Shown in pieces: positions 19,873 through 46,643 of a stretch of DNA of 63,492 nt. The DNA is from Chloroflexota bacterium. Lineage in GTDB: Bacteria; Chloroflexota; Dehalococcoidia; DSTF01; RBG-16-68-14. The number at the start of each line of letters is the position of its first letter. Within the stretch, counting starts at the first letter, position 1. The position numbers and the translations under genes are program-made. The stretch covers positions 1-63,492 of the forward strand of contig JADFPV010000004.1 of NCBI GenBank assembly GCA_022562155.1. The letters run 5' to 3'. The notes under the pieces are model-generated. The model did not search any database. It was not told the DNA's origin and worked only from the letters and a program-made list of their open reading frames with translations.

Positions 19873-19901
19873 TTGACGGAATAGTACATATGTTCTATTC
19901 T
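19873..19901 (+). promoter_or_regulatory. promoter P1 with embedded LexA-like box (TTGACG-gaat-AGTACATATGTTCT-ATTCT)
   Basis: -35 TTGACG 19873-19878, 17-nt spacer, -10 TATTCT 19896-19901. Box 19883-19896 has one mismatch to AGAAC-N4-GTTCT. Confidence 0.5.
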
Positions 19902-19956
19902 GCACATTAGCAGACGCCTCGATGGCGGGGCGGGCACATAGTGAAGTTGGCTTCTC

Positions 19957-20259
19957 TTGAACATTTCCGGCCTGATCATAGGCCAAGACATCACGACGGC
20001 GCTGTTCGCCACGGTCAACGCCGGATACTTCGGCGGCTACTGGTGGCGAAGCTCGGCCACGCGAGGACGGCGCGTTGGCGCGGCGGCACTTATGTTGCTG
20101 AGCACCGCGAGCGTCGTGGAGGCGATATTCTCCCAAGGCCTGTTCTGGTTACAACGCGGTGACCTGCTCTCTTACAGTGTCTGGGCGCTCCTCCGCCTGC
20201 CCCTGCTAGCGGCGACGTTGCTCATCTCAGCCATCATCCTGCGGAGGGTCCTTGGCTGA
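19957..20259 (+). CDS. small 3-TM membrane protein (holin-like, speculative)
   Basis: 100 aa, three hydrophobic segments. TTG start uncertain. First gene after P1. Confidence 0.4.
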   Translation: MNISGLIIGQDITTALFATVNAGYFGGYWWRSSATRGRRVGAAALMLLSTASVVEAIFSQGLFWLQRGDLLSYSVWALLRLPLLAATLLISAIILRRVLG

Positions 20260-20420
20260 TGGCCGCAGCGTTGCCAATCGCCATCGAGAGAAAAGAGTGG
20301 ACGTTGGCAGCGCTCTGTCTTCTCCTCGGCGTGGCCGAAGCAGCCTCGCGTCTGCCGCCCGAGACATTCGAGAGCCTGCTGGAGCTGCTCGAAGGAACAT
20401 CGCGTGACCAGCGAAACTGA
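20259..20420 (+). CDS. hypothetical small protein (53 aa)
   Basis: ATG overlaps the upstream stop (TGATG). Not in the ORF track (<60 aa). Confidence 0.3.
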   Translation: MAAALPIAIERKEWTLAALCLLLGVAEAASRLPPETFESLLELLEGTSRDQRN

Positions 20421-20751
20421 GGAGGCGATCAAGGATGACGAGGCCGACGTTGCAGACAACTTCTACAGCGACGCCTGTAACGAGGCTGAGCGCCTTCAGC
20501 TACAGAAGGCAGGAGAGATCGAAGGCCTCGATGACGAGATTGCGATGTTGCGAGTGAAGCTCCGCAGCGTCGTCAGCAAGCGCAAGGAGAACATCCCGCT
20601 GATGTTGCGCGGAATCGATCTACTGGTGAAGGCCGTCTCTGCCCGCTATCGCCTCTCGAAGAAGGCCGAAGAGGATCTGTCGGACAGCCTGGCCGGGGTG
20701 CTCCGTGGCGTCGGCGGCGCGCTGATGCCAGAGCGATTCGACGATGCGTAA
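20404..20751 (+). CDS. hypothetical helical protein (phage block A)
   Basis: 115 aa, acidic N-terminus, predicted helical. Overlaps its neighbours. Confidence 0.45.
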   Translation: MTSETEEAIKDDEADVADNFYSDACNEAERLQLQKAGEIEGLDDEIAMLRVKLRSVVSKRKENIPLMLRGIDLLVKAVSARYRLSKKAEEDLSDSLAGVLRGVGGALMPERFDDA

Positions 20752-20989
20752 GCCATCAGCAACGAAAGGCCCCCGCCTGCTGGAGAGAACGCTTGCCCGC
20801 TTTCGCGCACCAGCGCCACGCACCACCCACACGGTCCGGCTTTCGCCGGAGACGTTTCGGGCCGTCGTCGACGAGCGGCTCCGTTCGCTGGAACATCAGC
20901 TCAACGAGGTCAAAGGCCGCGTCAACGGCCTGATCTTCCTGCTCGCGGGGGCCGTGGCGACACAGCTGATCCTCAGACTGGCGGGCTAG
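20744..20989 (+). CDS. coiled-coil + C-terminal TM protein (XhlA-like architecture)
   Basis: LRSLEHQLNEVKGRVNGLIFLLAGAVATQLILRL: coiled coil followed by a single TM. Confidence 0.4.
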   Translation: MRKPSATKGPRLLERTLARFRAPAPRTTHTVRLSPETFRAVVDERLRSLEHQLNEVKGRVNGLIFLLAGAVATQLILRLAG

Positions 20990-20992
20990 GGC

Positions 20993-22384
20993 GTGCCGGC
21001 CGAGCGAGGTCCGTGGAGGCAGCAGCTGCGTCCATACCAAATCGAGGCCGGCCGCGCGATCCTGGAGAGCGTGCTCGACCGACAGGGGCGAAGCATCTCC
21101 GTAGAGATCGCCCGGCAGGGTGGTAAGAACGAGTTGTCGGCGCAGATCGAGGCGCTGCTGCTCTCTGTCCACCTGGGGCACCAGATCGACGCCGTCAAGT
21201 GCGCTCCGACGTTCGAGCCGCAGGGCCGTATCAGCCTGCGGAGGCTCTGGTCGCGATTGGTGGAGGCGGGCCTCGCGCCGATCTCTTCGGTCGAAGCAGG
21301 GCACGCGATTCGCGTCGGACGAGCGCGGCTGCTGTTCATGTCGGCAGAGCCGGAGGCGAACGTGGTGGGGCACAGCGCGCAGCTCCTGCTGGAAGTAGAT
21401 GAAGCGCAGGACGTGAACGAAGAGAAGTTCGACCGCGATTTCCGGCCGATGGCGGCCACGACAAACGCGACGACCGTCTACTACGGTACTGCGTGGGATG
21501 ACCGTACGCTCCTGGAACACGCCAAGCAACACCATCTGGAGCTGGAGCGCTCCGACGGCATACGACGCCATTTCGAGTATGACTGGCAAACTATCGCCCG
21601 CTACAACCCCGCCTACGGCCGCTACGTGGAGTCGGAGCGCGAACGCCTGGGCGAGCAGCACCCGCTGTTTCTGACGCAGTACTGCCTGAAGCCCATCAGC
21701 GGCGGCGGCCGGCTCTTCTCGCCGGGGCAGCTCGCCCAACTCGAGGGCGGCCATCCTCGCCAGCGCGCGCCCCGGTCAGGCGAGACATACGTCGCGGGAC
21801 TCGATCTCGCGGGCGGGGCGAGCGAGGACAACGCGGCTGCGGGCAATCGTGACGCTACCGTCCTGACGATCGCCCGCGCCTCTTACCCGGATTCGACGGC
21901 CATGATGCAAGAGCCACGGCTGGAGGTCGTCGAGCACTACACCTGGACGGGCGAACCGCACGACAAGCTGCTGCCGCGGCTGGCCGACCTGCTACGCGAG
22001 GTCTGGCAAGTGCGGCGGCTCGCCGTCGACAGCACGGGCCTCGGCGAGACGATCGCGCGGCTGCTGACGACCGTGTTGGGATCGCACGTCGCCGCCGCCG
22101 TTCGCTTCACGCAGGAATCGAAGTCGCGGCTCGGTTACGGGCTGCTGGCGGCGACGAACGGCGGCCGGCTCAAGCTCTACGCAGGCGACGGCTCGCTCGA
22201 GTCGCGTCACTGCCGCGGCGAGTTGGAGCAGGCGCGGGCGGCGTACCGGGCGAACCGCACGACGAACTTCTTCGTGGACCCCGCCGACGGCCACGACGAC
22301 TATCTGATGAGCCTGGCGCTGCTGGTGGAGGCGGGGTCGGACGCTGCTCCCCGGACAGCGCGCGGGCGAGTACGCAGTTTTTGA
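20993..22384 (+). CDS. terL: phage terminase large subunit
   Basis: RPYQIEA...ARQGGKNE (Walker A-like), LLLEVDEAQDV (Walker B), VAGLDLAGG...DATVLTIAR, LAVDSTGLGE, DGHDDYLMSLALL (RNaseH-like nuclease). Confidence 0.85.
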   Translation: MPAERGPWRQQLRPYQIEAGRAILESVLDRQGRSISVEIARQGGKNELSAQIEALLLSVHLGHQIDAVKCAPTFEPQGRISLRRLWSRLVEAGLAPISSVEAGHAIRVGRARLLFMSAEPEANVVGHSAQLLLEVDEAQDVNEEKFDRDFRPMAATTNATTVYYGTAWDDRTLLEHAKQHHLELERSDGIRRHFEYDWQTIARYNPAYGRYVESERERLGEQHPLFLTQYCLKPISGGGRLFSPGQLAQLEGGHPRQRAPRSGETYVAGLDLAGGASEDNAAAGNRDATVLTIARASYPDSTAMMQEPRLEVVEHYTWTGEPHDKLLPRLADLLREVWQVRRLAVDSTGLGETIARLLTTVLGSHVAAAVRFTQESKSRLGYGLLAATNGGRLKLYAGDGSLESRHCRGELEQARAAYRANRTTNFFVDPADGHDDYLMSLALLVEAGSDAAPRTARGRVRSF

Positions 22385-22463
22385 AGCTGGAGACCGGAAG
22401 CTTGAGGTTAGACGTCAGGGATTCGATGTTCAACCGCATGCCGCACGCACAAGGAGAGAGCTG

Positions 22464-22802
22464 ATGGGTAGCGTAGAGACAATCGAGCGACCAGCGTCCA
22501 GGATCCAGCATCCAGAGGCGGAGCGACACGCGAACGGGCGCAAGATCAGGAGCGACGCGCTACCAGAGCACGCCAGCTTCCAGGACCTCGGCTGCGAGCT
22601 GGCGCCGAGCTGCTTGCGCTGCCCGCTCGTGCGCTGCCGCTACGACGAGCCTGGCGGGGCGCGCAAGATCCGGCAGGTCCCGCGCGACGAAACGATCCGC
22701 GTGCGCCGCGCAGAAGGTGCGGAGATCGATGCGCTCGCCTCAGAGTTCGGCCTCTCGCGCCGGAGCGTCTTCCGCGTACTCGCGCGCGGGCGGGAAGGCT
22801 AG
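22464..22802 (+). CDS. Cys-rich + HTH DNA-binding protein
   Basis: CELAPSCLRCPLVRC cluster and C-terminal HTH (IDALASEFGLSRRSVFRVL). AAGGAG RBS. Confidence 0.55.
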   Translation: MGSVETIERPASRIQHPEAERHANGRKIRSDALPEHASFQDLGCELAPSCLRCPLVRCRYDEPGGARKIRQVPRDETIRVRRAEGAEIDALASEFGLSRRSVFRVLARGREG

Positions 22803-23173
22803 GCGTCGCCGCCCACCGGCGCGCAGAGCTCTAACGCGTGACCGTCCGGGTCCTCGAAGTATGCAGACTTGGCAGGCATCCATTCGTGGTAGACCGGGCC
22901 GTTGACCTTCACGCCGCGCTCACGCAGCTGCTCGACCGCACGTTCGATGTCGGCTTCCTCGACCGTGAACGCGAAGTGCTGAGTCGCCCACTCGCCCTTG
23001 TCCTCCTGCAGGACGATCATGCCGGCCTGGCCGCCGACGCGCAGGAAGAGCCAGTTCCGGCTCTCGTCGCGCAGGCCTTCCTCCAGTCCAAGGACCTCCG
23101 TATAGAACGGCTCGGCCTTCGAGAGGTCTTTTACTCGGATCGCCACCTCATAGACTCCACTGATCGGTAACAT
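22799..23173 (-). CDS. VOC/glyoxalase-family protein
   Basis: Start at the internal ATG 23173. VYEVAIRVKDLSKAEPFYTEVLGL...FEDPDGHALEL. Confidence 0.8.
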   Translation of the reverse strand: MLPISGVYEVAIRVKDLSKAEPFYTEVLGLEEGLRDESRNWLFLRVGGQAGMIVLQEDKGEWATQHFAFTVEEADIERAVEQLRERGVKVNGPVYHEWMPAKSAYFEDPDGHALELCAPVGGDA

Positions 23174-23335
23174 GCCGCTCTCCTTTCGCTCGTTCACCAC
23201 CACAGCCAACGTACCGCCTAACAAGCACGGCGCCATCCGGCGGAGGGCCGAGATCGCCGTAGGCCTTTCGACTGAGGCAGGAACGGATCGCAGCAGGGTA
23301 TAATGCCGCCGACTCCAGGCAGGGAGGAGATCGCG

Positions 23336-24223
23336 TTGCCACACGTCCGCTACGTCGACGGGCCGACCATCGAGTTGCAAGACGAGGAGACTGTACTCGA
23401 GGCCTCCCTGCGCTGGGGGGTGGACCACCGACACGCCTGTGATGGATCATGCCGCTGTAGTACCTGCCGAGTGGAGATCCTAGAAGGCGCAGACCATCTC
23501 GCCGAGCCCGACGATGAAGAGTGCGAGATCCTGGCAATCAATAAGCTCGGGCCGCCGATCCGCCTGGCCTGCCAGTTGAGGCCAACCGGTGATATCACTA
23601 TCCGTGTGCTAATGAGCGAGATCGACGCGACGTTGCCGCCCTCGCTCGCACAGGGGATGGCGCAAGAGCGCGAGGTGGCAGTGATGTTCGCCGACATCCG
23701 CGATTTCACGCCGTTCTCGGAGCAGCAGATGCCGTTCGACGTGCTGCATCTACTGAACCGCTACTTCGACCGCATGGGAACCATCATCGAGAAGTTCCAC
23801 GGCCATATCGTCTCGTACCAGGGAGACGGCTTCATGACGCTCTTCCCGGCGGGCGGCGATACGTCGGCGTTGGAGGCGGTGCACTGCGGCCTGGAGATGC
23901 TGGAGGCACGCGAGTCGCTCAGCACGTACGCGAAGGAGCACTTCGATTTCGAGATGCGCATCGGCATCGGCATCGACTTCGGCCGGGCGCTTGTGGCCCA
24001 AATCGGCTACTATCGCGGCACGCAGCTCAACGCGATCGGTGATGTCGTGAACACGGCGTCTCGAGTACAAGACCTGACGAAGGAACACGGCGCCCAGCTA
24101 CTGATCACCAGCGCTGTGCACGAACGGCTGCGTGATCGCTTCGAGACGGGTCAGCGTCTGGAGACCGACATTCGCGGTAAGAGCGGCAAGCACACTCTGA
24201 TCGAAGTGCTAGGGACGAAGTAG
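23336..24223 (+). CDS. [2Fe-2S] ferredoxin domain fused to class III adenylate/guanylate cyclase
   Basis: ACDGSCRCSTCRV...IRLACQL (adrenodoxin-type Cys pattern), then VMFADIRDFT, YQGDGFM, NAIGDVVNTASRVQ. TTG start 23336 after GGGAGGAG. The ATG at 23303 overlaps a TATAAT hexamer. Confidence 0.8.
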   Translation: MPHVRYVDGPTIELQDEETVLEASLRWGVDHRHACDGSCRCSTCRVEILEGADHLAEPDDEECEILAINKLGPPIRLACQLRPTGDITIRVLMSEIDATLPPSLAQGMAQEREVAVMFADIRDFTPFSEQQMPFDVLHLLNRYFDRMGTIIEKFHGHIVSYQGDGFMTLFPAGGDTSALEAVHCGLEMLEARESLSTYAKEHFDFEMRIGIGIDFGRALVAQIGYYRGTQLNAIGDVVNTASRVQDLTKEHGAQLLITSAVHERLRDRFETGQRLETDIRGKSGKHTLIEVLGTK

Positions 24224-24256
24224 ACGGCTACGACCGTTTTCTATACTTGACGCATC

Positions 24257-24757
24257 ATGAAGGCTTGGCGGCCAAGGCTAATGTTGGCGATGGCGGCGCT
24301 GATGCTCGCCTTGTTCGTGGTGGCATGCTCCGGAGGAGACGCGCCTGACGCCAATGCGACCCCGGCGGGCACGCCTGATCTCTTTACAACGCCAGTACTC
24401 CCAATCGCCATCCCAACTAAGACACCAATCCCTCAGATCGCCTCCTATTTCGATCACCCAGAAGGCGAACTCATTTGGGACGGTCCCGACGACCGCGTAT
24501 CGAGTATCGCACGAGCTCACTGTGAACCGTCGAGTGAAGTTCGCCAACGATATGGGATTCCGGCTCGGATTGAGATCGCCGGCGAGCGTGGATTCTGGTA
24601 CGCAACGCAGACGGCGCCGCAGACGACATGGAGTTCGACAGGATATCACCACGACGGCTGGCAGATCTGGCGGAGCCCTTCTCAGGAGTCGATCTATCTC
24701 ATCAACCCGGGTGAGCCCGGACTCGCGTTCGAGTACAGGGATTACGGCTGCATCTAG
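24257..24757 (+). CDS. hypothetical lipoprotein
   Basis: Signal peptide with lipobox LFVVACSG. Confidence 0.6.
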   Translation: MKAWRPRLMLAMAALMLALFVVACSGGDAPDANATPAGTPDLFTTPVLPIAIPTKTPIPQIASYFDHPEGELIWDGPDDRVSSIARAHCEPSSEVRQRYGIPARIEIAGERGFWYATQTAPQTTWSSTGYHHDGWQIWRSPSQESIYLINPGEPGLAFEYRDYGCI

Positions 24758-24761
24758 GCAT

Positions 24762-25385
24762 CTACCTGTGCGCCGGTCGCTTCATCGTCCAGAAGTGGGG
24801 GCCGCCGTCCGGCAGGTCGTCTTCGACGACGACCTGGAAGCCGTGCTTCTCGTAGAAGACAACGTTGCGCTCCTTCATCGTCTCTAGGTAGCACGGCAGG
24901 CCGTCGGCGTCGGCGCGGGCGAGCATCGGAGCGACGAGCGAGCCGCCGACGCCCTGGCCCTGCTTGGCGGTATCGACGCCCAGGATCATCAGGTACCAGT
25001 GGTCCTCCGGCATATCGCGCTTGTGCAGCTCTTCCATGTGGTCGTTGATGTTGAGGAAACGCCGAAACGCGCCGAGGCCGAGCTTGAACGGCGCAAGCAG
25101 CAGGCCGGCGCGGGCCATGCGAAACGGGGTCATGTCGGCCTCACCGGGCGGGAGCCAGCACGCGGCGCCGTCGACCGACTCCGGCGTGGTATGCACTTCG
25201 CCGTAGAGCTGGCCGTACTTTGCGCCGGCGCGCATGAACCATTTCAGCTTCCCCGGACGGCTGTCTTCGTCCGGGAGGATGTAAGCGAGCAGCGGATCGT
25301 CGAAGAATGCTCTGCCGAGCACTTCGCCCGCTTCGTCGAGTTGGGACTCCTTGAGATGCGTGGCCTGTGGAGTGTCGGTGGTCAT
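24762..25385 (-). CDS. GNAT-family N-acetyltransferase
   Basis: ILGVDTAKQGQGVGGSLV...FYEKHGFQVV acetyl-CoA binding region. Start at ATG 25385. Confidence 0.8.
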   Translation of the reverse strand: MTTDTPQATHLKESQLDEAGEVLGRAFFDDPLLAYILPDEDSRPGKLKWFMRAGAKYGQLYGEVHTTPESVDGAACWLPPGEADMTPFRMARAGLLLAPFKLGLGAFRRFLNINDHMEELHKRDMPEDHWYLMILGVDTAKQGQGVGGSLVAPMLARADADGLPCYLETMKERNVVFYEKHGFQVVVEDDLPDGGPHFWTMKRPAHR

Positions 25386-25543
25386 AAGCGGCCTCCGCGC
25401 ATGCATGCGTTTCTTCGTGCGGCGACTGTAGCTCTCGGTGGGCGATGGCGTCAAGTGCCACGGCCCTCTTTGCGATCGACGCGCACTGGAGCAGCATGGG
25501 TTAGCTTCTTTGCTTCCCAGACAGAGCTGATGGAGGTGCTCCG

Positions 25544-26911
25544 ATGGCCCAACAGACCGCCCTCACGATCCCACAGCAGCTCAGCAGAATGAACACCGGC
25601 CGGCTGCGCGCCTATGCGGAGCTGCTGTCGTTCTATCAGGGCGACCAGTGGCCGCGACAGATGCGGCGGCGTGAACGGCGGCTGATCTTCAACTACGCGA
25701 AGGCGTTCGTCGATAAGACGACGTCGTACTTGATGTCCAGCATGCATGCGGTGGTCGATGTCGAGGACGACTCCCCTGAGGCAGCCGAGCGGGCGCTACG
25801 TACTGAGCGGGCGCTACGCGAAATATCGGAGCAGAACAACCTCGCGCAGCTCGATTTCGACACGGAGCTGGACGCCGCCGTGCTGGGCGACGGCGCGTTC
25901 AAGGTGACGTGGGACCCGGTGGAGCGCCGTGTACGCGTCTCCGCGCCGGATGTACAGGGGCTCTTCGTCTGGTGGCTGGGCGACGATGTCACCAGAGTTT
26001 GGCGCGTGGCGAGCCGTTACTTCATGTCGGCGGACGAAGTCGAGATCGCGTTCGGCGTCCGCCCTTCGGCGCAACGTCCCGACCGCGTCGAGGTGGTCGA
26101 AGTGTGGACGGCAGAGACGTTCGATCTGTGGATCGATGGCAAGATCGCCGACGAGAAGGCGAATCCCTACGGCTTCATCCCGTTCGTTATCTATCCCAAC
26201 CTGCGCGAGCCGAAGCAGTTCTGGGGCACGTCTGACATCCCGGCGATCCGTGAGTCGGTGCGCGAACTGAACCGGGCATTATCGCAGTTGTCGATGATCC
26301 TGGAGCTGTCCGGCAACCCGATCGCCGTGCTGGAGAACGTGACGGAAGCGCAAGACATCGCGGTGCAGCCGGGCGCGGTCTGGGAGCTGCCGGAACGCGC
26401 GCGCGCCTACCTGCTCGACCTGCTGCAGGGCGGAGGCGTGCAGCTCCACATCGAATACGTGAACCTGATCTACCGAACGCTGCACGACCTCGGAGAGGCG
26501 CCACGCACGGCCTTCGGCGAGAGCCGCGCGAATCTCTCCGGCGTCGCGCTCAACCTGGAGCTGGACCCGCTGCTGAAGAAGGTGCAGCGCAAGCGCCTGG
26601 TCCGTTCGACGGCATACGTACGCCGGAACGAGATGGTCCTGCGCATTCTCGAACAGGAGACCGGCGTGTCATACGCGCCGTATCGCTCGCGCATCGTCTG
26701 GGGCGCCGTCATCCCCCGCGACCGCAGCCGCCTGATCGGCGACGAGAAGTCGCTCGTGGCCGCGGGTATCCATAGCCGCCGTCGCGCCGCCGACGAACTG
26801 GGCGTCGCGGACCCGGACGCGGAGTTCGCCCGCTGGCTGGAAGAGCAGGAGCGTATACGCGAGGACGGCGTCCGCAGCGAGAACGGGCGGGCAGCCGTGG
26901 GGCGGGAGTAG
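25544..26911 (+). CDS. phage portal protein (SPP1 gp6-like)
   Basis: 455 aa. FYQGDQW...NYAKAFVDKTTSYLM N-terminal region and overall portal-like pattern. GGAGG RBS. Confidence 0.75.
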   Translation: MAQQTALTIPQQLSRMNTGRLRAYAELLSFYQGDQWPRQMRRRERRLIFNYAKAFVDKTTSYLMSSMHAVVDVEDDSPEAAERALRTERALREISEQNNLAQLDFDTELDAAVLGDGAFKVTWDPVERRVRVSAPDVQGLFVWWLGDDVTRVWRVASRYFMSADEVEIAFGVRPSAQRPDRVEVVEVWTAETFDLWIDGKIADEKANPYGFIPFVIYPNLREPKQFWGTSDIPAIRESVRELNRALSQLSMILELSGNPIAVLENVTEAQDIAVQPGAVWELPERARAYLLDLLQGGGVQLHIEYVNLIYRTLHDLGEAPRTAFGESRANLSGVALNLELDPLLKKVQRKRLVRSTAYVRRNEMVLRILEQETGVSYAPYRSRIVWGAVIPRDRSRLIGDEKSLVAAGIHSRRRAADELGVADPDAEFARWLEEQERIREDGVRSENGRAAVGRE

Positions 26912-28122: not shown

Positions 28123-28134
28123 GAGCCCAACCAG

Positions 28135-28614: not shown

Positions 28615-28655
28615 GCATTGCTCTCCTTCTTGAACTCCAATTGGGCCGTTCTCGC

Positions 28656-29336: not shown

Positions 29337-29507
29337 TACGTCATGCTCCTTGTGCAATCGCGGGAAGCCAACGTTGCTGCCCGCTCTAAGATCAGGCTAC
29401 GCGGGATAGAACCGTCTGCCATCCGCGTAACCACGTATCTTGCGTCGTCAAGATCTGAGGACGGGCTCGCGTTGTGGCGGAAACTACGTAGAGTCAGGTA
29501 CGGAGGT

Positions 29508-32557: not shown

Positions 32558-32567
32558 CATCGACACG

Positions 32568-35408: not shown

Positions 35409-35421
35409 TTCAGCGAAGGCA

Positions 35422-36107: not shown

Positions 36108-36119
36108 GATTCATTCTTT

Positions 36120-36129
36120 CGTATATACG
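36120..36129. promoter_or_regulatory. AT-rich palindrome CGTATATACG in the vapBC/dnaE2 divergent region
   Basis: Perfect 10-nt palindrome in a local GC dip. Possible VapB operator. Confidence 0.25.
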
Positions 36130-36199
36130 GTATCCATTTTTATATCTACGATTCTGTTTTTAGTATACACATCTGCAACGAGCGTGGCAATACACTGAG

Positions 36200-39721: not shown

Positions 39722-39742
39722 CCACGTAACGGTAGGCGGGCG

Positions 39743-39761
39743 CCCGCCGCCAAGCGGCGGG
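39743..39761 (+). terminator. GC-rich hairpin after dnaE2
   Basis: CCCGCCGC-caa-GCGGCGGG, no clear U-tract. Confidence 0.35.
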
Positions 39762-39779
39762 TGCTAAACTCTGGCGGTC

Positions 39780-40952
39780 ATGGCCGTTACCTTCGTGCCC
39801 AACACACCGGAATGGATGGCCGATCCCCACGCCTCGTATCGAGAGCTGCGCGAACAGGACCCGGTGCATTGGAGCGAGACGTTGGGCCACTGGGTCCTCA
39901 CGCGCTACGAGGATGTCGCGTCAGTACTGAAAGACGAGCGCTTCTCCGCCGCCAACAGGGCGCCGCAACGTCGCTGGGACCGCCCAACGACGATGGTCAC
40001 AGCCGACCCGCCCGACCACGGGCGGCTCCGGAAGTCGGTCCGCCATCGATTCTCGCTCACGTCGGTCAACGCGCAGCGGCCGCGCATCCAGGAGATCGTC
40101 GATCAGCTTCTCGATGCGGTCGAACCGGCGAGCGACATGGAGGTCGTACAGCAACTCGCGCGACCGCTCCCGAGGACGGTGATGCTGGAGTTATTGGGTG
40201 TGCCGGAGCCAACGCCCTCCGGCTCACCAAATGCGCCAACGCCGCGTGTCGCCGAGCCACACGGCGGCTCGAGCGCTGGTTCGCGCTTGCGAGGAGTCCC
40301 GTTGGCCCCGGGTACCGCGATGCCAAGCGAGGCCTTCTTCCAGGAAGCGATCGAGAAGCACCGTGAGGAGTTGACGGACGATCTGCTGGGCGAGCTGCTC
40401 AAGGCGGAGACGGGCCGCGAAATGTCTCCCGAGGAAGTACTCGATACAGCCGTGATTCTCTACGGCGCGGGGCAGGAGACGACGGCGAAGATGATCGCCA
40501 ACGGGCTGTTTCAGCTGCTCCGGCATCCCGCAGAACTTGAGAAGCTGCGTGGCAATCCAGGACTGATCGACTCGGCGACAGAGGAGTTATTGCGCTTCGA
40601 CTCACCAGTGCACGCCATCACCCGCCGCGCCACCGAGGACGTCGATGTTGGAGGAACCACGATCCAGCAAGGCGACAAGGCACTTTGCGTACTGGCGGCG
40701 GCGAATCACGACCCGGAAGTCTTCCACAATCCGAACGAGCTGGACATCTCTCGCGCCAACAATCCACACATCGCGTTCGGTACCGGCATCCATGCCTGTC
40801 TGGGCGCGACCCTGGCGCGCGTTGAGATTCAGATCGCGATCGCGACGATGCTGGCGCGATTTCCCAAGCTGCGACTCGCAACAGATGATGTCGACTGGGA
40901 GGGCAGCTTCATCATCCGAGGCGTCGCGAGCCTACCTGTTACCTTCCTTTAA
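39780..40952 (+). CDS. cytochrome P450
   Basis: FGTGIHACLGATLAR heme-thiolate loop, EELLRF (ExxR), AGQETT I-helix. Confidence 0.9.
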   Translation: MAVTFVPNTPEWMADPHASYRELREQDPVHWSETLGHWVLTRYEDVASVLKDERFSAANRAPQRRWDRPTTMVTADPPDHGRLRKSVRHRFSLTSVNAQRPRIQEIVDQLLDAVEPASDMEVVQQLARPLPRTVMLELLGVPEPTPSGSPNAPTPRVAEPHGGSSAGSRLRGVPLAPGTAMPSEAFFQEAIEKHREELTDDLLGELLKAETGREMSPEEVLDTAVILYGAGQETTAKMIANGLFQLLRHPAELEKLRGNPGLIDSATEELLRFDSPVHAITRRATEDVDVGGTTIQQGDKALCVLAAANHDPEVFHNPNELDISRANNPHIAFGTGIHACLGATLARVEIQIAIATMLARFPKLRLATDDVDWEGSFIIRGVASLPVTFL

Positions 40953-41057
40953 GCCTTCGCTAGGCCCTTGCATCCTTGCTGGACACCGTGCCATGCTACA
41001 GCGCGCTAAGCGGCATTGAGGCGCTATCTGAATGACACTGAGAGGAGGAGAGACATC

Positions 41058-41915
41058 ATGGGCAAACTAGATGGGAAAGTCGTTGTCGTCACGGGCGCCA
41101 GCCGAGGTATCGGCGCGGAGATCGCGAAGGTGTTCGCGGCCGAGGGCGGGAAGGTGGTCTGCGCGGCGCGAACGCTTAAGGAGGGCGAGCATCCGCTGGA
41201 AGGCTCGTTGGAGACGACCGTAGCCGGAATCAAAGACGAGGGCGGCGAGGCGACCGCCGTCGCGGTGAACATCTCCGAGGAGTCCGAATGCGAGAAGCTC
41301 ATCCAAGCCGCCCGCGATACTTACGGCCCGATCGACGTGCTGGTGAACAACGCGGCGCTCACGTACTTCGTGCCGGTGAAGGACTACCCAACGAACCGCT
41401 GGATGCGATCGTGGGCCGTGAATTTCCACGCGCCCTTCATTCTCAGCAAGCTGGTTCTGCCGGACATGATCGAGCGCAGCAGCGGCAGCATCGTGAACAT
41501 CTCATCGGGCGCCGCGATCGGTCCCGGCCGAGGCCCCTACCAGGAGATGCAGCAGCGCGGAGGCGGCACCTGCTACGGCGCCGAGAAGGCGGCGCTGGAG
41601 CGCTTCACGCAGGGGCTCGCTGCCGAGGTCTACGCGAACAACGTGTCCGTGACGTGCGTCTCGCCGTCGCAAGTCGTGCCGACGCCGGGCACTGTGTTCC
41701 ACAAGCTTGTCAAGGGGCTGGACGACCCGCGAGGTGAGTCGCCAGAGCTAATGGCCAAGGCTACCCTGCTGCTCGCCACAGAGCCACTCGACAAGGTGTC
41801 GGGCCGCGTCACGTACAGCCAGCAGATCCTCAAGGAGTATGGCTGGATCGAGGAGGCGCAGGGCACCGGCGTCGGCGACGCCGCACGTGTCGGGAGCGGC
41901 TACAGCCAGATCTAG
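41058..41915 (+). CDS. SDR-family oxidoreductase
   Basis: VVVVTGASRGIGAEIA, NNAA, Y-x3-K (YGAEK). ATG 41058 after AGGAGG. Confidence 0.85.
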   Translation: MGKLDGKVVVVTGASRGIGAEIAKVFAAEGGKVVCAARTLKEGEHPLEGSLETTVAGIKDEGGEATAVAVNISEESECEKLIQAARDTYGPIDVLVNNAALTYFVPVKDYPTNRWMRSWAVNFHAPFILSKLVLPDMIERSSGSIVNISSGAAIGPGRGPYQEMQQRGGGTCYGAEKAALERFTQGLAAEVYANNVSVTCVSPSQVVPTPGTVFHKLVKGLDDPRGESPELMAKATLLLATEPLDKVSGRVTYSQQILKEYGWIEEAQGTGVGDAARVGSGYSQI

Positions 41916-42619
41916 GGAATCGCGATCCCCTCCAGCCGGATCTGCGAACCGTCCAGGTTCGTTCGCCAGCTGAGGAACTCTGCCGGCACCGCCGTTGGCG
42001 AAGGTGGCGTTGGGGCGGGCAGAGGCACCAGCCAACCCTTCAGTCTGATCCGGTATCCGTCGACGAGCGCTTCCGTGCAGGCCTCGCCCGGCTCCGGCAG
42101 GCCGAGACAACCGTTGGGCCACGTCTCGGCGCTCACCGATCTCACGATAACTTGATCCTCTGGAATGCTCAGGGTTTCGGCTGTAGCCTGAATCGCCGCT
42201 GCGATCGCTTCCCTTGCGGCCGCTGGCAGAAAATCGATGAGCCCGGCATCGAGCTGTAGGATCAGTGCGGCATCGATAGAGCCAACTGTGCCGTCGGCGT
42301 CGACGTCAGCAACCTCGCGACAGCCAAGGTCCAATATCAGTCGTGCGTCAAACTGCAAGACCAGAGCCGCGTCTATCGCATTCGCCTGACCGTCGCAATT
42401 GGCATCGCCAATCATCGTGCCTGAGGCAGGCTCGACAGACTTCGCAATTGTGAAGCTACCGACAATTAAGCCTATCGCTAACAGTGCTGCCGCAATCAGA
42501 GACAGAGCGTGTCTATCGTAGGCCACCTCCACCACCTCCATCTGCTGCAAAGCGTCCCCCAAACGAAGGTAGCCATGAGGATAGCAGTCGAGCGCTAGAA
42601 GAGCGAGTGCCACCTGCAT
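41912..42619 (-). CDS. dockerin-repeat-containing membrane-anchored protein
   Basis: GDANCDGQANAIDAALVLQ and DVDADGTVGSIDAALILQ (two dockerin-type Ca-binding repeats). N-terminal TM. AGGAG RBS. Confidence 0.6.
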   Translation of the reverse strand: MQVALALLALDCYPHGYLRLGDALQQMEVVEVAYDRHALSLIAAALLAIGLIVGSFTIAKSVEPASGTMIGDANCDGQANAIDAALVLQFDARLILDLGCREVADVDADGTVGSIDAALILQLDAGLIDFLPAAAREAIAAAIQATAETLSIPEDQVIVRSVSAETWPNGCLGLPEPGEACTEALVDGYRIRLKGWLVPLPAPTPPSPTAVPAEFLSWRTNLDGSQIRLEGIAIP

Positions 42620-42657
42620 ATTGGCGCTCCTCTAGCTCCCTCGTAGGCTGGCATCCT

Positions 42658-43092
42658 ATGCCCGCGACAAGACCGTATGAGACATCAGATCGCGCGTCCG
42701 CTATCGAGCAGCTAGGCGACGCCCGCGCCGTCGACCAGGTCTCCCACCGCATTCACGCAGCGGAAGACGGTCCGACCGCTGGCGTGGCCGTCTGGGTGGA
42801 ACCCGGGCCTGGCGGCGAACCGTACCTGGGAGCCGTGAAGGTCCCCGGCGACAATCGGCGGCTCTTCTACCAGCTCATCGAAGCCTGCGCTGCGGACGCC
42901 TTCGGCCGAGGATATGAGCACGCAACGTTTACCGTCCACGATGCCCAACTCCTTTCGCTGATCCGGCGCGACTTCACAGTTGAGGCCACACCGGCTGGAT
43001 GGGACCCGGAGAGCGACTTGCCTGTCCAGTGGGACATCCGCGTCGAACTGCAAGACGCCCTCGAACAGTTACAGAGGGTGCTGCGTGCCTGA
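42658..43092 (+). CDS. hypothetical protein (possible acetyltransferase-like fold), first gene of block D
   Basis: ATG 42658. No strong motif. Confidence 0.35.
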   Translation: MPATRPYETSDRASAIEQLGDARAVDQVSHRIHAAEDGPTAGVAVWVEPGPGGEPYLGAVKVPGDNRRLFYQLIEACAADAFGRGYEHATFTVHDAQLLSLIRRDFTVEATPAGWDPESDLPVQWDIRVELQDALEQLQRVLRA

Positions 43093-43789
43093 AGAAGCCT
43101 TCCTTCCCATCCGCGACTCCAAGATGCAGGGCATTCCCGAATTCGCGCAGGCGCTGAACTACGGCGGTGCGCCCACGTTGCGCCACATCGTGCTCTACGC
43201 GGGCGGAGGCAAGTCCACCTGGGAGCGCACGATCGTGGATTTCGACGTCGCCCAGATCAGCGAAGCCAAGATCCTTGGAGCCAAGCTCGTGCGTGAGATT
43301 ACGTTGCTCTCGAACGGAGGCCACCAGGCAAGGCTGTCTCGTTGCACGAGGCCGGGCGAATGGGTCGAGAGCGAAGTGACGTGGCTCCGCTACAAGGCCG
43401 GCGCCGACTGGACGGACAACGGCGGCGATTTCGACGACACGGGGCCACCGGCGGTCCTGACCTACGATGAGCCAACGATAACCGGAGAGCACGAGATCGG
43501 CGGGCTCTTGGCGTTCGTTGAGGACGCGATCGAGAGCCGAGGCGGCATCGTTTCCCTGATCACACGCCTCTCCGACGAAACCCCGGACGTGGACACCGGA
43601 GCGTCCTGGTTCGCCAAGGGCCACGCCCAGAGCTGGCGCCTCGTGGTCGAGTACACGGCCCCGAATGCGGGACGTAGAAGTATTCCCAGATCTACCAAGC
43701 GCGGTTCTACTACGCCGCGCGCTCCGTCGCGACCGGCACACCCCCACGCATCCGCACGGGCACAACAACCTATAAGGAGGCGTAGATGA
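43085..43789 (+). CDS. DNRLRE-like domain protein with basic Arg/Pro-rich tail
   Basis: GEWVESEVTWLRYKAGADWTDNGGDFDD ... SWRLVVEYT. Start is GTG 43085 (overlap) or ATG 43124. Confidence 0.4.
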   Translation: MPEEAFLPIRDSKMQGIPEFAQALNYGGAPTLRHIVLYAGGGKSTWERTIVDFDVAQISEAKILGAKLVREITLLSNGGHQARLSRCTRPGEWVESEVTWLRYKAGADWTDNGGDFDDTGPPAVLTYDEPTITGEHEIGGLLAFVEDAIESRGGIVSLITRLSDETPDVDTGASWFAKGHAQSWRLVVEYTAPNAGRRSIPRSTKRGSTTPRAPSRPAHPHASARAQQPIRRRR

Positions 43790-44427
43790 GCAATCTAGCA
43801 ACGATCCGGGCCGCCGTCCGCATCGACTTGCAGGACGAGGATGCAACGAACGAGCGTTGGGCAAACGACACGCTGGACCGGCACATCGAGCGGGCCGTGC
43901 TGGAGTACTCGCACGTCAGCCCGCTCGAGAAGAAGTCGACGCTCCAGACCGCGCAGGACTCGCGCGACGTCGACGTCTCCAGCCTCAGCTCGGCAATCCG
44001 CATCGTGGCGGCGGAGTATCCCACGGGCCAGTACCCACCCGCATACGTCCCGTTTTCGCTTTGGGGCGACACCCTGACCCTCGATCTCGCCGGCGCGCCG
44101 AGCGGTACGCCCGATGTCGTGGTCTTCTGGCATGCCGTGCACACCATCAACGGCGCCATCAGCTTTCCGGACAGCCACGACGACATCATCGCCGGCGGGG
44201 CCGCGGGCTATGCGGCGCTCGAATGGTCCTCGTTCTCGTCGAACAGACTGAACGTCGGTGGAGATGACGTCTGGGGCCGTTACATGGAGTTCGCGAACGT
44301 ACGGCTGGCGGCCTTTCGTCAACAGCTCAGCACGCTGCCCTCGGCGAATCGTGCCCGCACGTCGCGCCTATACACACCGGCCGACGTCAGGTTTTCGTCG
44401 CAGTCGACAGACCCGGGACCCGTCTAA
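43786..44427 (+). CDS. head-tail adaptor/connector candidate
   Basis: 213 aa. ATGA overlap with the upstream gene, AAGGAGG RBS. Assignment is by position only. Confidence 0.35.
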   Translation: MSNLATIRAAVRIDLQDEDATNERWANDTLDRHIERAVLEYSHVSPLEKKSTLQTAQDSRDVDVSSLSSAIRIVAAEYPTGQYPPAYVPFSLWGDTLTLDLAGAPSGTPDVVVFWHAVHTINGAISFPDSHDDIIAGGAAGYAALEWSSFSSNRLNVGGDDVWGRYMEFANVRLAAFRQQLSTLPSANRARTSRLYTPADVRFSSQSTDPGPV

Positions 44428-44432
44428 CCACG

Positions 44433-46421
44433 ATGCGGACCCTCAGTTCCACGCTACTGGCCGCTCAGAAGGACCTCAGCTCGGTCCCGTTCGTCAAGGT
44501 CACTCTCACCGACGAGATCGCGGACATCGTCCGCCTCCGTTGGGAACGGCTATACACCGGTAGCGAGACCGACGCTTACCACGCCGTGGCGATACCGGCC
44601 GACGGCTCGCTGTTGCGGCTGCGGGTCGATCCGGCCGGGCCAACGCTCTACTACCAGCGCACGACCTCGCCGGACGATCAAAGCGACTTCAGCGGCTGGA
44701 CGAGCCTCGGCTCCGTGGCCGATGCCGGCGTCGCGCTGACGGTAAACGGCAGTGATGTCCTGCGCGCATACGTGGCCGCGAACGGAAGCGACATCAAGGT
44801 GGAGGACAGCAGCAACAACGGCGCGAGCTTCGGCGGCGCCGTGACGGCTGCAAGCCTCGCGAACGTCGTCTGGCTGTCAGGCGCACTGAAGAGCAACGGG
44901 GACGCGGTCCTCATCTACGCGGACGCGACAACGGTCTACGCCGTCCGGCGCACGACAGGGACGTGGGGCACGCCGGCCGCCTGGTCACACTCGGCGAACG
45001 GCATCGAAGGCATCGCCATGGCCCTCTTCGGCGACTTCCACGTCGCGATCGCGGGCACGGACACGAACGACAACCCACGGCTCTGGACCGCCGTCTACGG
45101 CGACGGCGTCACTCGCGCCGCCGATACCTGGTCGGTGCTCTCGAACATCGCCGAGGCGGATGACGGCTCCGACGTCACGTTCCTGGCGCCGTTCCTGGCC
45201 TACGTCGACACGGCGCGCCTCTTCTTCGTGGAGGCTTACGCGGGCACCGTCTCGTACTCGCAGCCGCAGTGGACGTGGTTCCCCGTAGGTCAGAGCTTCG
45301 AAGCCAACGCTTGGCGCGAGCCCGTGCCGTTCGAAGTCGACAGCGACTTCGGGTCGGCCATCGCCGGCGTTGGCTCGTACGCGTGGCTCTCCACTCCGAG
45401 CGGCGTCTGGCGGGCATCGCTGGCGCCGTCGGAGACCGAGCTGAGCGACGACGTGCTCGAGCTATCGCTCGAGACGCAGCGCACACGCGGCGGCGTCAAG
45501 ATCGTGCTGCGGAACGACGACGGTCGATACAACGATCTGCAGAACGGCGCCTACAGCGTCATCCGGCACGGCGCCCAGGTCGAGGTGGAGCTTGGGTTCG
45601 TCACCCCGCAGGGCGAAGAGGTCTGCGTGCCAGGGCTCAAGTATTGGCTCGATGGCTGGGAACACACGTCGGCTGGCGGGGAGGCGACGCTTGTGCTTCA
45701 CGCGAGCAACGCTTGGTCGCTGATAGAGCGCTGGCGGGCGCGCAGACAACACACGTGGCAGGCGGGCGACAGAGCCATCTCGCAGATCCTGAGCTTCGTC
45801 GTCGGGCGGGCCGGCGTTGAGCTGGTGAACATTGGCATCAGCTCCGTGGTCGCGAACCACAAACCGGACTTCACGATTCACCCCGGCGAAAGCGGTCTGC
45901 GGGCTGTCCAGCGCTTGCTGGCGATGGTGCCGGACTCCATCCGCATGTCTAATGCGGTAGCCCAGCTCTTAGAGACCGAGGCAACGGACACGTCCGACTA
46001 CGACTACGGCACTGACCACCCGATCCTCCACGCGCGCTACGGTTCACCCGCGCTGGCTAGAAATCGGTTCCAGGTGTTCGGAGATGATCTGTTCGCGCAA
46101 GCGTTTGACTGGCCGGAGATCGAGGACCAGTTCGACAACGTGCGCCAGATCTTCGACCTGAACCTGACGACGCAGACGAACGTAGAGGATCGGGCCGGGA
46201 TCGCGCTACGGCACGAGACGCTGGCGCCCTCTCGTGGGGAGCTGGTCACACCCGTCAACTGCGGCCAAGACGTGAACGACGTCGTGTCCGTGACCGACGA
46301 GGCGGCCGGTCTTTCGGACATCGACTTCCGCGTCGCCGGGATCGAGCTGCGCTACGTCCGGCGGAGCAAGGTGCGGCGTTCCCCGATTTACGAACAGCGC
46401 CTGCAACTGAGCAACGTCTAG
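44433..46421 (+). CDS. tail-tip protein: N-terminal beta-propeller/sialidase-like region + C-terminal hub (gpD/gp27-like) region
   Basis: 662 aa. Asp-box-like SSNNGASF. C-terminal RGGVKIVLRNDDGRYNDL...VEVELGF...LDGWEH pattern resembling phage late-control D/hub proteins. Confidence 0.45.
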   Translation: MRTLSSTLLAAQKDLSSVPFVKVTLTDEIADIVRLRWERLYTGSETDAYHAVAIPADGSLLRLRVDPAGPTLYYQRTTSPDDQSDFSGWTSLGSVADAGVALTVNGSDVLRAYVAANGSDIKVEDSSNNGASFGGAVTAASLANVVWLSGALKSNGDAVLIYADATTVYAVRRTTGTWGTPAAWSHSANGIEGIAMALFGDFHVAIAGTDTNDNPRLWTAVYGDGVTRAADTWSVLSNIAEADDGSDVTFLAPFLAYVDTARLFFVEAYAGTVSYSQPQWTWFPVGQSFEANAWREPVPFEVDSDFGSAIAGVGSYAWLSTPSGVWRASLAPSETELSDDVLELSLETQRTRGGVKIVLRNDDGRYNDLQNGAYSVIRHGAQVEVELGFVTPQGEEVCVPGLKYWLDGWEHTSAGGEATLVLHASNAWSLIERWRARRQHTWQAGDRAISQILSFVVGRAGVELVNIGISSVVANHKPDFTIHPGESGLRAVQRLLAMVPDSIRMSNAVAQLLETEATDTSDYDYGTDHPILHARYGSPALARNRFQVFGDDLFAQAFDWPEIEDQFDNVRQIFDLNLTTQTNVEDRAGIALRHETLAPSRGELVTPVNCGQDVNDVVSVTDEAAGLSDIDFRVAGIELRYVRRSKVRRSPIYEQRLQLSNV

Positions 46422-46430
46422 GAGCATGTG

Positions 46431-46643
46431 ATGAACATCAGACGAGGCGAAGTAAAGTCGTTCAACAGCACCGCCTACACCGCGACGGTCCAGCTGGCCG
46501 GCAGCCTCAGTGTGTGGCTTTCGGACGTGCCCGTCGCGCGCAACATCGCATCGGCTGAAATGGTGGCTGGCCGGCGCTGCGCTGTGCTCTCATTCGATGA
46601 GAGCAATCACCAGGACGCCGTCGTGATCGCCGTCTACGTGTAG
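46431..46643 (+). CDS. small OB-fold spike/gpV-like protein
   Basis: 70 aa. RRGEVKSF...ATVQLAGS...VPVARNI...AVLSFDESNHQDAVVIAVY resembles baseplate V/gp5 N-terminal OB-folds. AGGAG RBS. Confidence 0.35.
   Translation: MNIRRGEVKSFNSTAYTATVQLAGSLSVWLSDVPVARNIASAEMVAGRRCAVLSFDESNHQDAVVIAVYV

Follow-up and report, generated by a model that had tools for sequence, protein, structure and literature searches.

A phage-type gene set divided into four blocks

The stretch analysed here, 63,492 nt of contig JADFPV010000004.1 from a Chloroflexota bacterium (hereafter the window), carries 13 phage-type genes that all lie on the + strand and follow the canonical order of a tailed phage: large terminase (TerL), a Cys4-helix-turn-helix (Cys4-HTH) protein, portal, scaffold, HK97-type capsid, adaptor, a propeller-and-hub protein and a small tip protein, together with accessory genes. 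As described in an initial annotation made from the letters of the window alone, the set is divided into four blocks, separated by 2741, 5120 and 9106 bp of cellular genes. The locus spans 26.7 kb and is flanked by FtsH/rnhB on the left and PAP2/ruvB on the right. On balance, it is probably an endogenised, phage-derived set of particle genes that has been wired to the SOS response of its host. In the following, loci from related genomes and viral contigs are designated by L-numbers (L001, L042, etc.); all chromosomal relatives among them are metagenome-assembled genomes (MAGs). The phage-type genes, and one further feature of the third block, are as follows (aa, amino acids).

Block A, 19957-22802, +
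19957-20259, +, 100-aa membrane protein with about three transmembrane segments by eye (translation read); first gene of operon 1
20259-20420, +, 53-aa small ORF read from the sequence, overlapping the preceding stop codon (ATGA)
20404-20751, +, 115-aa coiled-coil protein, directly upstream of TerL
20744-20989, +, 81-aa protein with a C-terminal hydrophobic helix (translation; orthologs in L016, L039, L041-L044)
20993-22384, +, TerL with ATPase and RNaseH-like nuclease (PHROG, tblastn, PF17289, motifs)
22464-22802, +, Cys4-HTH protein, sigma region-4/HTH_7-like (HTH_7 and phrog_836 'late activator', both weak)
Block B, 25544-26911, +
25544-26911, +, portal of the SPP1 gp6 type (PF05133 SPP1_portal, E 3.7e-21; phrog_64, E 8e-33)
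Block C, 32032-33551, +
32032-32499, +, acidic coiled-coil scaffolding protein (phrog_1793, weak; PF06810, weak, in an ortholog)
32519-32558, +, perfect 18-bp inverted repeat with a 4-nt loop in the scaffold-capsid intergenic region
32652-33551, +, HK97-fold major capsid, 299-aa allele (phrog_212, E 1.4e-68; PF05065, E 9e-6)
Block D, 42658-46643, +
42658-43092, +, 144-aa accessory protein, clade-specific (orthologs only in L001 and L045)
43121-43789, +, ~222-aa protein with a carbohydrate-binding-like domain (weak Disaggr_repeat match)
43786-44427, +, head-to-tail adaptor of the SU10 adaptor family (PF24175 SU10_adaptor, E 7e-4)
44433-46421, +, 662-aa tail hub with an N-terminal beta-propeller and Mu gp44/gp27-type hub domains (AlphaFold2 (AF2) and Foldseek)
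46428-46643, +, conserved tip or spike protein of 71 aa, in every case encoded immediately behind the hub gene, with 51-77% identity between loci

The terminase, gp6-like portal, 299-aa HK97-like capsid, adaptor-like protein and propeller-hub protein of the initial annotation are all supported by these searches. The identities of the portal and the capsid are unambiguous from their profile matches. An encapsulin reading of the capsid is contradicted by the presence and conservation of portal, TerL, adaptor and hub, and the SrpI-like Pfam match is weak (E 1.7e-4) and ranks below the phage capsid match. Capsid homologs number more than 4600, and the best-scoring 120 are almost all full length. 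A capsid scan with one genome per species returned almost only Chloroflexota MAGs labelled Dehalococcoidia, at 96% to 50% identity; one carrier host is Ca. Amarobacter glycogenicus (Tepidiformales). For TerL, profile support from the window sequence is weak (four TerL PHROGs, best E 7e-5). At the same time, tblastn matches annotated phage TerLs (e.g., that of Bacillus phage vB_BboS-125, 33%, E 2e-41), PF17289 (Terminase_6C) matches 9 of 12 family members, and the Walker A (RQGGKNE) and Walker B (LLEVDE) motifs and the nuclease Asp residues are invariant in the family alignment. There are more than 4000 TerL homologs, the best 120 of which are 66-93% identical and almost all full length. An AF2 model of TerL built from a shallow alignment (pLDDT 49) was unusable for fold assignment; Foldseek gave RNaseH-like folds and, at E 0.58, the ATPase of P74-26 TerL.

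Two other assignments stand in part. The scaffold-like protein has only weak profile matches together with its position, the scaffold gene directly preceding the capsid gene in all compact relatives. Similarly, the predicted Cys4-HTH gene is present and lies between TerL and the portal in chromosomal relatives, where it may encode a candidate element-specific activator, and both of its profile matches are weak. The inverted repeat between scaffold and capsid is possibly an attenuator or a processing site, which could set the expression ratio of the two proteins. The small proteins of block A have no match in Pfam or PHROG. The 100-aa membrane protein, which may play a holin-like role, has orthologs at the same position in L039, L041, L042 and L044, and small genes of 52-65 aa are called at the position of the 53-aa ORF in L040 and L041-L044. 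The 115-aa protein adjoins TerL in chromosomal and free relatives alike (L016, L024, L025, L028, L039, L041-L044), a position that makes it a candidate small terminase.

In the tail block, the adaptor of the window matches SU10_adaptor at the value listed above and its ortholog in L044 at E <= 1e-5 (precomputed match). The AF2 model of the 662-aa protein (pLDDT 82.6, pTM 0.80) matches the tail hubs Mu gp44, MuSo2 43-kDa, gp27 and VgrG over its C-terminal ~360 residues (Foldseek E ~1e-11) and seven-bladed lectin propellers at its N-terminus. It was also considered as a 'nozzle' of the T7/SU10 type, which the fold search rules out in favour of a gp27/Mu gp44-type hub, since no podovirus nozzle protein is found among its 50 best fold matches in the Protein Data Bank (PDB). 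Profile searches of the PDB with TerL, hub, tip and adaptor alignments gave nothing significant; the adaptor showed an insignificant N-terminal match only ('Adaptor protein gp12' of 7wmp, E 0.24), and the sole match of the tip protein (E 0.1) was chain 4jiw_D, an uncharacterised 93-aa protein. The DNRLRE-like character proposed for the ~222-aa protein survives only as a weak match of the Disaggr_repeat/CBM96 type, its ortholog in L045 matching both CBM96 and Disaggr_repeat, and the protein may be regarded as a candidate fibre or receptor-binding protein. The 144-aa accessory protein has no Pfam or PHROG match. In a second clade of chromosomal relatives (described below), the accessory proteins likewise have no match in PHROG or Pfam, and hhalign detected no homology between the pre-adaptor genes of the two clades.

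The genes of an autonomous prophage are missing from the locus. No gene of the window has a Pfam match to an integrase or resolvase, tblastn with the integrases of free relatives and a serine recombinase gave zero matches in the window, and searches of the window for tRNAs and for att-like or IS-like repeats were negative; the corresponding claims of the initial annotation are thus borne out. Integrase, HNH endonuclease, tRNA and att are absent from the chromosomal relatives as well, and no excisionase, repressor or replication gene is found at the window locus. Whereas an ordinary prophage is contiguous, is bordered by att sites, encodes an integrase or recombinase and contains regulatory, replication and lysis modules, the locus consists of structural and packaging genes and one HTH gene, interleaved with 17 kb of cellular genes. 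The remaining genes of the window are ordinary cellular ones (UvrA, RmuC, a class II tRNA synthetase, an EPSP-synthase-family enzyme, MreB, Rex and dehydrogenases), and its GC content is flat (59-68%) with no compositional break. All 13 phage-type genes are intact, in agreement with the initial annotation.

Free relatives with very small genomes

In a capsid-based scan of viral contigs, the same structural module was found uninterrupted and in the same order. Two of these contigs represent complete circles, because their termini overlap or repeat:

L024, IMGVR_UViG_3300032053_009471: contig of 12,689 nt, circle of 12,495 bp, 194-nt terminal overlap
L025, IMGVR_UViG_3300029267_002955: contig of 15,019 nt, circle of 14,875 bp, 144-nt direct terminal repeat

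In both mini-phages, the module comprises a small-terminase candidate, TerL, portal, scaffold, capsid, adaptor, hub and tip; a tyrosine integrase and an HNH endonuclease are encoded next to the terminase genes, and otherwise there are only small ORFs. Neither carries a tube, tape measure or lysin gene. Their proteins are 53-56% (TerL) and 50-52% (capsid) identical to those of the window. They differ from the window in having the integrase and the HNH endonuclease and in lacking the Cys4-HTH gene (which is absent also from mini-phages L023 and L028 and from an Acidimicrobiia prophage, L019), the LexA-type boxes and GTGCCAC motif described below, and the cargo. Both genomes are among the smallest known for tailed phages.

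Because complete relatives of 12.5-14.9 kb do without tube, sheath and tape measure, the ancestor of the element was probably short-tailed, that is, a minimal temperate phage. The lack of these long-tail genes in the window, which the initial annotation had pointed out, is therefore not a defect. The mini-phage group itself appears to be uncharacterised, since the hub, for which 848 homologs were found, has no sequence match in 50,697 deposited phage genomes.

Chromosomal relatives and purifying selection

In the relatives that share this chromosomal site, it is not occupied by a contiguous, integrase-encoding prophage. L039/L040 and L042 share the left flank of the window (an EPSP-synthase-family gene, MreB, Rex, FtsH and rnhB, then block A), and L045, which is located on the same contig as L042, shares the right flank (tip gene, PAP2(-), ruvB, HTH, ACAD(-) and DsbA(-)); all of them contain the same split set without an integrase. 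The second clade (L041/L046, L043 and L044; TerL 69-71%) has a nearly contiguous set of ~12.5 kb, also without an integrase, with two or three variable minus-strand genes between portal and scaffold. It ends at ruvB where the downstream sequence can be seen (L046), and its left flank is an acyl-CoA-dehydrogenase/HIT region in all three. Elsewhere the genes are more scattered: in L047, the hub gene is isolated among glycine-cleavage genes; in L009 and L011, a solitary capsid gene is enclosed by a Na+/H+ antiporter gene and a short-chain dehydrogenase (SDR) gene, with the adaptor 4-7 kb away and, in L011, on the opposite strand; and a minus-strand gene separates scaffold from capsid in L048.

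The divergence of the set matches that of its host. Between the window and L042/L045, element genes have a median synonymous divergence (dS) of 0.89, and the remaining genes in common (flanking host genes and shared cargo) one of 1.04; protein identities are 76% (TerL), 81% (portal), 74% (adaptor) and 77% (tip), compared with 79% for FtsH, 86% for RuvB and 65% for rnhB. In a three-taxon comparison, RuvB, TerL, portal, adaptor, hub and tip all give the topology ((window, L042/45), L041/46), and the capsid alone differs. The ratio of nonsynonymous to synonymous divergence (dN/dS) against L002 is 0.05 for the capsid and 0.12 for both portal and scaffold, at dS 0.37-0.84, and against L001 it is 0.18-0.35; DnaE2, ImuB and FtsH fall within the range of the element genes, and two spurious antisense ORFs give 0.78 and 1.29. 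Despite dS values of ~0.9 or more, all 13 genes are full length in the window, in L042 plus L045 and in the stretches of L041 plus L046, L043 and L044 that were examined. Since the split, seen in the positions of GNAT, HlyIII and SDR plus dockerin genes, is common to the compared genomes, selection has acted on the set in its split, integrase-less state. The reading as a domesticated element, which had been put forward as a candidate, gains support from the integrase-less relatives at the same site, the matching dS, the purifying selection and the conserved operators described below.

Further observations concern the scattered forms. In a lone-capsid lineage (L006, L008-L013 and L020), which includes Ca. 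Amarobacter glycogenicus, the capsid gene stands among unrelated cellular genes, with an SDR gene as a recurrent neighbour (L005, L008, L009, L011 and L012). These lone capsids keep a conserved segment ~90 nt before the start, GTGCCAACCGGCCCTTCGGG...GACCATCG (e.g., L009 9900-10000); a structured RNA leader was considered for this segment, which reads better as a promoter of the GTGCCAC type. The lone capsid may serve the dispersed set or another purpose, such as a shell of the encapsulin kind. In L039 11981-14300 (L040 6414-8733), the portal stops at about residue 244 and meets an inserted element with a large serine recombinase, a tyrosine integrase and an MT-A70 methyltransferase, which could be either a plain disruption or a reversible interruption. 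A programmed rearrangement mediated by a serine recombinase, prompted by L039, L004 and L017, was rejected for the window, which contains no recombinase.

Promoters and predicted operators

Each block is preceded by a promoter on the + strand:

19873-19901, +, P_A, -35 TTGACG, LexA-type box AGTACATATGTTCT (19883-19896), -10 TATTCT (promoter scan)
25455-25474, +, P_B, upstream of the portal, GTGCCAC-N7-TTTGCG motif
31952-31993, +, P_C, GTGCCAT-N7-TTGATC (-35), LexA-type box AGCACGACTGTTCT (31976-31989), -10 TATTTT
42607-42649, +, P_D, GTGCCAC-N7-TTGGCG-N17-TAGGCT, ending 8 nt before the ATG at 42658

The LexA consensus of Bacillus subtilis is CGAACN4GTTCG (PMC3091678). The boxes of P_A and P_C are of the GAAC-N4-GTTC type and lie between a -35 of the TTGAC type and a -10 of the TAnnnT type; each has one core mismatch in the window, and the boxes are canonical in relatives L041, L044, L016 and L018. 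The pattern ACNNNNGTTCTAT occurs three times in the 63.5-kb window, compared with 0.10 expected, and all three occurrences are promoters, namely those of block A, the scaffold and imuB, a cargo gene whose promoter has the same design as P_A and P_C with a perfect box at 33941-33954. Outside the locus, a perfect GAACGTATGTTC box at 11691-11702 lies 42 nt upstream of rmuC (10531-11649, -), and a one-mismatch box at 3390-3401 precedes uvrA. As boxes precede these two genes, the sequence suggests that the SOS regulon of the host uses an operator of the Gram-positive type. P_A and P_C would then belong to this regulon, in that a predicted operator of the host type overlaps each promoter. The architecture of P_A is conserved upstream of block A in L039, L041, L042, L043, L044 and L016, and that of P_C upstream of the scaffold in L001, L002, L004, L007, L017, L018 and L041-L044. 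Every chromosomal relative examined has a LexA-type box at each of the two positions, whereas the integrase-bearing mini-phages and the Acidimicrobiia prophage L019 have none. The SOS-type operators that the initial annotation had assigned to two blocks are accordingly found where it placed them.

A second motif consists of GTG[CA]CA and, 7-9 nt further on, a -35 resembling TTGxCG. In the window it is found before the portal and before the tail block; in relatives, whichever of portal, scaffold, capsid, adaptor and hub opens a unit has it upstream. Orthologs of P_B are found upstream of the portal in L001, L002, L039, L042 and L048, and P_D has an ortholog (GTGCCAC-N7-TTGGCG-N17-TAGCCT) in L045, with the motif present also in L001. 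Eighteen of the 30 matches to GTG[CA]CA-N7-9-TTxxC in 20 loci lie immediately upstream of element genes, in regions that make up 3.1% of the sequence (binomial p ~5e-20). The motif is kept before isolated genes, such as the adaptor of L009, and the lone capsid genes and the hub of L047 have similar upstream sequences; GTGCCAC-N7-TTGxCG is absent from the free mini-phages. Because the chromosomal elements have its gene and the mini-phages do not, the Cys4-HTH protein would be the obvious candidate reader of this motif.

Cargo between the blocks

The three gaps contain the following genes, whose initial identifications were confirmed by Pfam:

22799-25454, mixed strands, Cargo 1: VOC(-), Fer2-cyclase(+), 166-aa protein(+), GNAT(-)
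26923-31938, mixed strands, Cargo 2: beta-lactamase-like, DUF6410, MerB, LuxR-hydrolase and cupredoxin (all -), HlyIII(+)
33672-42619, Cargo 3: HTH_3, LexA box (33941-33954), ImuB, VapBC-like pair, DnaE2, P450, SDR, dockerin(-)

In cargo 1, the GNAT and 166-aa genes are common to L001, L002, L007 and L042, and the VOC and cyclase genes are not shared. HlyIII of cargo 2 is common to L001, L002, L007, L042 and L048, whereas the other genes vary between genomes. In cargo 3, ImuB-DnaE2 is present only in the window and L002, and SDR and dockerin genes are common to L001 and L045. L042/L045 have GNAT(-) before the portal, HlyIII before the scaffold and SDR plus FG-GAP/dockerin(-) before the tail block, and lack VOC/cyclase, the block from beta-lactamase to cupredoxin, ImuB-DnaE2 and P450; L001, L002 and L007 have other combinations. 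Because the combinations differ in this way, part of the cargo is old and shared and part recent and lineage-specific. The gaps between the operons thus behave as insertion hot spots for accessory genes, including the imuB-dnaE2 mutagenesis cassette.

This cassette (33672-39721) is a recent insertion directly after the capsid gene, in which a VapBC-like PIN toxin pair separates imuB from dnaE2 and an HTH_3 gene lies upstream; dnaE2 contains a 120-nt direct repeat (38701-38820 and 38938-39057, 97% identical, 237 nt apart). The portal-scaffold junction is a hot spot for variable, mostly minus-strand genes (L041 13141-15226, L043 13357-15091, L044 13077-14663, window 26923-31938), the contents of which differ in almost every genome (PDDEXK nuclease, SPL-like protein, MerB, beta-lactamase-like, cupredoxin). 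In addition, an FG-GAP/dockerin-type surface protein travels with the tail block (L046 12799-14556, L045 6303-7901, L001 14133-17489, window 41912-42619). Its gene is downstream and co-oriented in one clade and upstream and inverted in that of the window, where it is shortened to 235 aa; the protein may be an old adhesin associated with the element.

Origin and possible function of the element

The reading that we favour is that an ancestor close to the tiny temperate short-tailed phages of 12.5-15 kb was fixed beside ruvB in the ancestor of a Dehalococcoidia-type Chloroflexota clade, lost its integrase and HNH endonuclease, and gained or kept the small Cys4-HTH regulator. The set would then have been inherited with the chromosome under purifying selection. 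In this model, DNA damage would lead to cleavage of LexA, which would open P_A (membrane proteins, small-terminase candidate, TerL and HTH protein) and P_C (scaffold and capsid), and the portal and the tail block would be driven by their own GTGCCAC-N7-(-35) promoters, the motif being a possible target of the HTH activator. Assembly would yield a small head with a short tail, into which TerL and the portal would load DNA. The set could be split and yet intact because each block has its own promoter, so that insertions at operon boundaries would leave it unsilenced. Provided that head size has been conserved, the genes of the element would not fit into its particle, because the 26.7-kb locus is about twice the size of the genomes of the free relatives, and for this reason the element would be GTA-like (GTA, gene transfer agent) or PBSX-like and not a phage. 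The parts of this model differ in strength. We consider it very probable, from the comparison of loci, that the set was endogenised and retained by selection; we lean only slightly towards SOS-induced particles filled with DNA; and we regard true gene transfer by the element as doubtful. As the element is known here from its genes alone, GTA-like is a candidate label.

A different outcome of the same domestication is that the particle serves a purpose other than transfer, such as killing in the manner of PBSX, SOS-dependent altruistic lysis with release of extracellular DNA, or interference with infecting phage relatives through mis-assembly or component capture. The evidence for endogenisation, selection and SOS wiring applies equally here, a lectin-like hub propeller and receptor-binding-type accessory genes that vary between clades fit a targeting device, and free relatives open to interference do exist. 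However, the portal and TerL, whose ATPase and nuclease motifs are intact, belong to the most strongly conserved proteins, which argues that DNA packaging itself has been selected. We therefore regard a non-transfer role as unlikely, although the present data do not distinguish delivery from killing.

Several observations weigh against the favoured reading of a selected, SOS-wired particle. Ordinary prophages under SOS control commonly have LexA boxes too (PMC12527982). Because the GTGCCAC motif was defined post hoc, the p value given above is inflated, although several of the 20 loci were added only after that definition; as defined, the motif was not detected in L016 and L018, two relatives of lower GC that have the HTH gene. 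No endolysin was recognised among the element genes. GTA small terminases have been reported to lack the DNA-binding domain (PMC11841831); the 115-aa candidate is about as long as its free-phage counterparts (117-118 aa) and gives no sign of such a loss. The argument from head capacity rests on the genome sizes of the relatives (12.5 and 14.9 kb, with a capsid protein of about the same length) and fails in the compact clade, where the locus itself is ~12.5 kb. Sister genomes keep the blocks largely intact under purifying selection, as the domesticated reading requires, but four of the ~18 chromosomal relatives carry a lesion: L039 has a cut portal and L048 a gutted one, and the capsid is truncated in L007 and frameshifted in L017. 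These lesions, some of which could be MAG errors, imply that the set is dispensable and sometimes decays. Furthermore, L018 9855-14973 and the free phage L025 9511-15019 share 84-92% nucleotide identity over scaffold(3')-capsid-adaptor-hub, with TerL and portal at ~70%, and this near-identity of operon 2 points to a recent module exchange, by which genes still flow between free phages and chromosomal copies. Finally, the 299-aa capsid of the window is only 59% identical to that of the same-site relative L042 (16773-17660), whose 295-aa SU10_MCP-like capsid is 74% identical to that of the distant L041; as the two alleles differ at the same site, the window capsid was presumably replaced by recombination.

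The lesions, the module exchange, the capsid allele swap and the absence of lysis and replication genes would also fit an old cryptic prophage remnant with no host function, which decays slowly and is repaired or replaced by recombination with infecting relatives. Neutral decay over such a divergence, however, would have introduced stops or frameshifts into most genes, whereas the 13 genes are full length at dS ~0.9 or more, with dN/dS values of 0.05-0.35 and a dS that matches the host flanks, and promoters and operators are conserved even for isolated genes; this explanation is thus quite improbable. A still-active temperate phage with large moron or cargo islands, moved by a host recombinase, by in-situ packaging and homologous re-integration or by a helper, is very improbable indeed, because, even though its close free relatives are real phages, its structural genes are intact and SOS control is typical of prophage induction, the window lacks integrase, excisionase, repressor, replication gene and att site, the flanks are conserved core genes in several genomes, the span of 26.7 kb exceeds the 12.5-14.9 kb of the relatives' genomes, and single genes are scattered elsewhere (the hub of L047, the capsids of L009 and L011, the opposite-strand adaptor of L011).

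Should the endogenised, SOS-wired reading be correct, living phage cousins of 12.5-15 kb would allow the steps of domestication to be read, namely loss of integrase and HNH endonuclease, gain of regulator and operators, invasion by cargo, and scattering. The series from free mini-phage through compact integrase-less cluster and cargo-split cluster to single scattered genes with the same promoter motif would form an unusually complete record of a virus becoming an organelle-like system. The carrier organisms are abundant in soil, groundwater and wastewater and are poorly cultured, and in them a packaging device that is passed on vertically and tied to the SOS response could be a principal means of exchanging genes or of responding to DNA damage. 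The model also offers testable parts: two operators, one candidate activator and the motif of this activator.

Comparison with known systems

To our knowledge, few independent GTA lineages exist, and we know of none outside Proteobacteria, Spirochaetota and Archaea; in the literature that was searched, neither a GTA nor anything comparable is described for Chloroflexi, Chloroflexota or Dehalococcoidia. It is tempting to speculate that the present element is an unrecognised, independently evolved GTA, the first in Chloroflexota and the first with a short tail, switched directly by LexA and by an element activator via the GTGCCAC motif, and widespread in environmental bacteria of the Dehalococcoidia/Tepidiformales type; this proposal is a tentative one, and we would not expect all of it to hold. 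Six attributes of GTAs have been listed: phage-derived proteins, random host DNA, an endogenised genome, a head too small for that genome, vertical inheritance and delivery (PMC9662315). Three of the six can be recognised from the genes of the element. Its proteins derive from tailed phages (portal, capsid, TerL, adaptor and hub, with the module present in complete circular phages). It appears endogenised over several loci, in four blocks without integrase, att or tRNA, within conserved host flanks and with scattered single genes elsewhere. By its syntenic flanks, its dS and the three-taxon topology, it has mostly been inherited vertically and has co-diversified with its host, apart from the capsid allele swap and the L018/L025 mosaic. 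Limited head capacity would be a fourth attribute, deduced from the sizes given above.

The RcGTA-type elements (Rhodogtaviriformidae, Alphaproteobacteria) have no integrase, are inherited with the chromosome at host-like rates, occupy several loci and exceed their head capacity, and they are controlled by host regulators and by a dedicated activator, GafA, with sigma-like DNA-binding domains (PMC9662315, PMC9638019). The element of the window resembles them in its integrase-less, phage-derived head, packaging and tail genes, in its distribution over several loci and in its candidate dedicated activator. It differs in representing an independent domestication in another phylum, in its short tail (adaptor, hub and tip) without tube or tape measure, in its interleaved cargo and close free phage relatives, and in being known from genes alone. 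In addition, LexA-type boxes lie directly in two of its structural promoters, whereas LexA of R. capsulatus is linked to cckA, according to the title of a cited study. BhGTA/VSH-1 of Brachyspira hyodysenteriae, which is inducible by DNA damage, possibly divided and packages host DNA, is among the nearest functional analogues; its host phylum is unrelated and its function has been shown by experiment, and the element is likened to it with no claim of homology.

Among phages and other particle-forming elements, the SU10-like podophages share the adaptor family (Pfam SU10_adaptor) and, in the 295-aa allele of relatives, the capsid family (SU10_MCP), a similarity that is weak at the profile level, and they differ from the window in that its hub fold is gp27/Mu gp44-like. 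PBSX of Bacillus is a chromosomally fixed, SOS-inducible, non-propagating particle that packages ~13 kb of host DNA, less than its own locus; it is contiguous and contractile-tailed, encodes a repressor of its own (Xre) as well as lysis functions, and serves in killing. The element of the window, by contrast, has a short tail, a set split by cargo and a LexA-type box directly in its promoters. The capsid-forming satellites of the phage-inducible chromosomal island (PICI) type have capsid, portal and terminase genes of their own on a small chromosomal island, retain an integrase together with replication genes, and take their tails from a helper, whereas the set in the window has no integrase and encodes its own adaptor, hub and tip.

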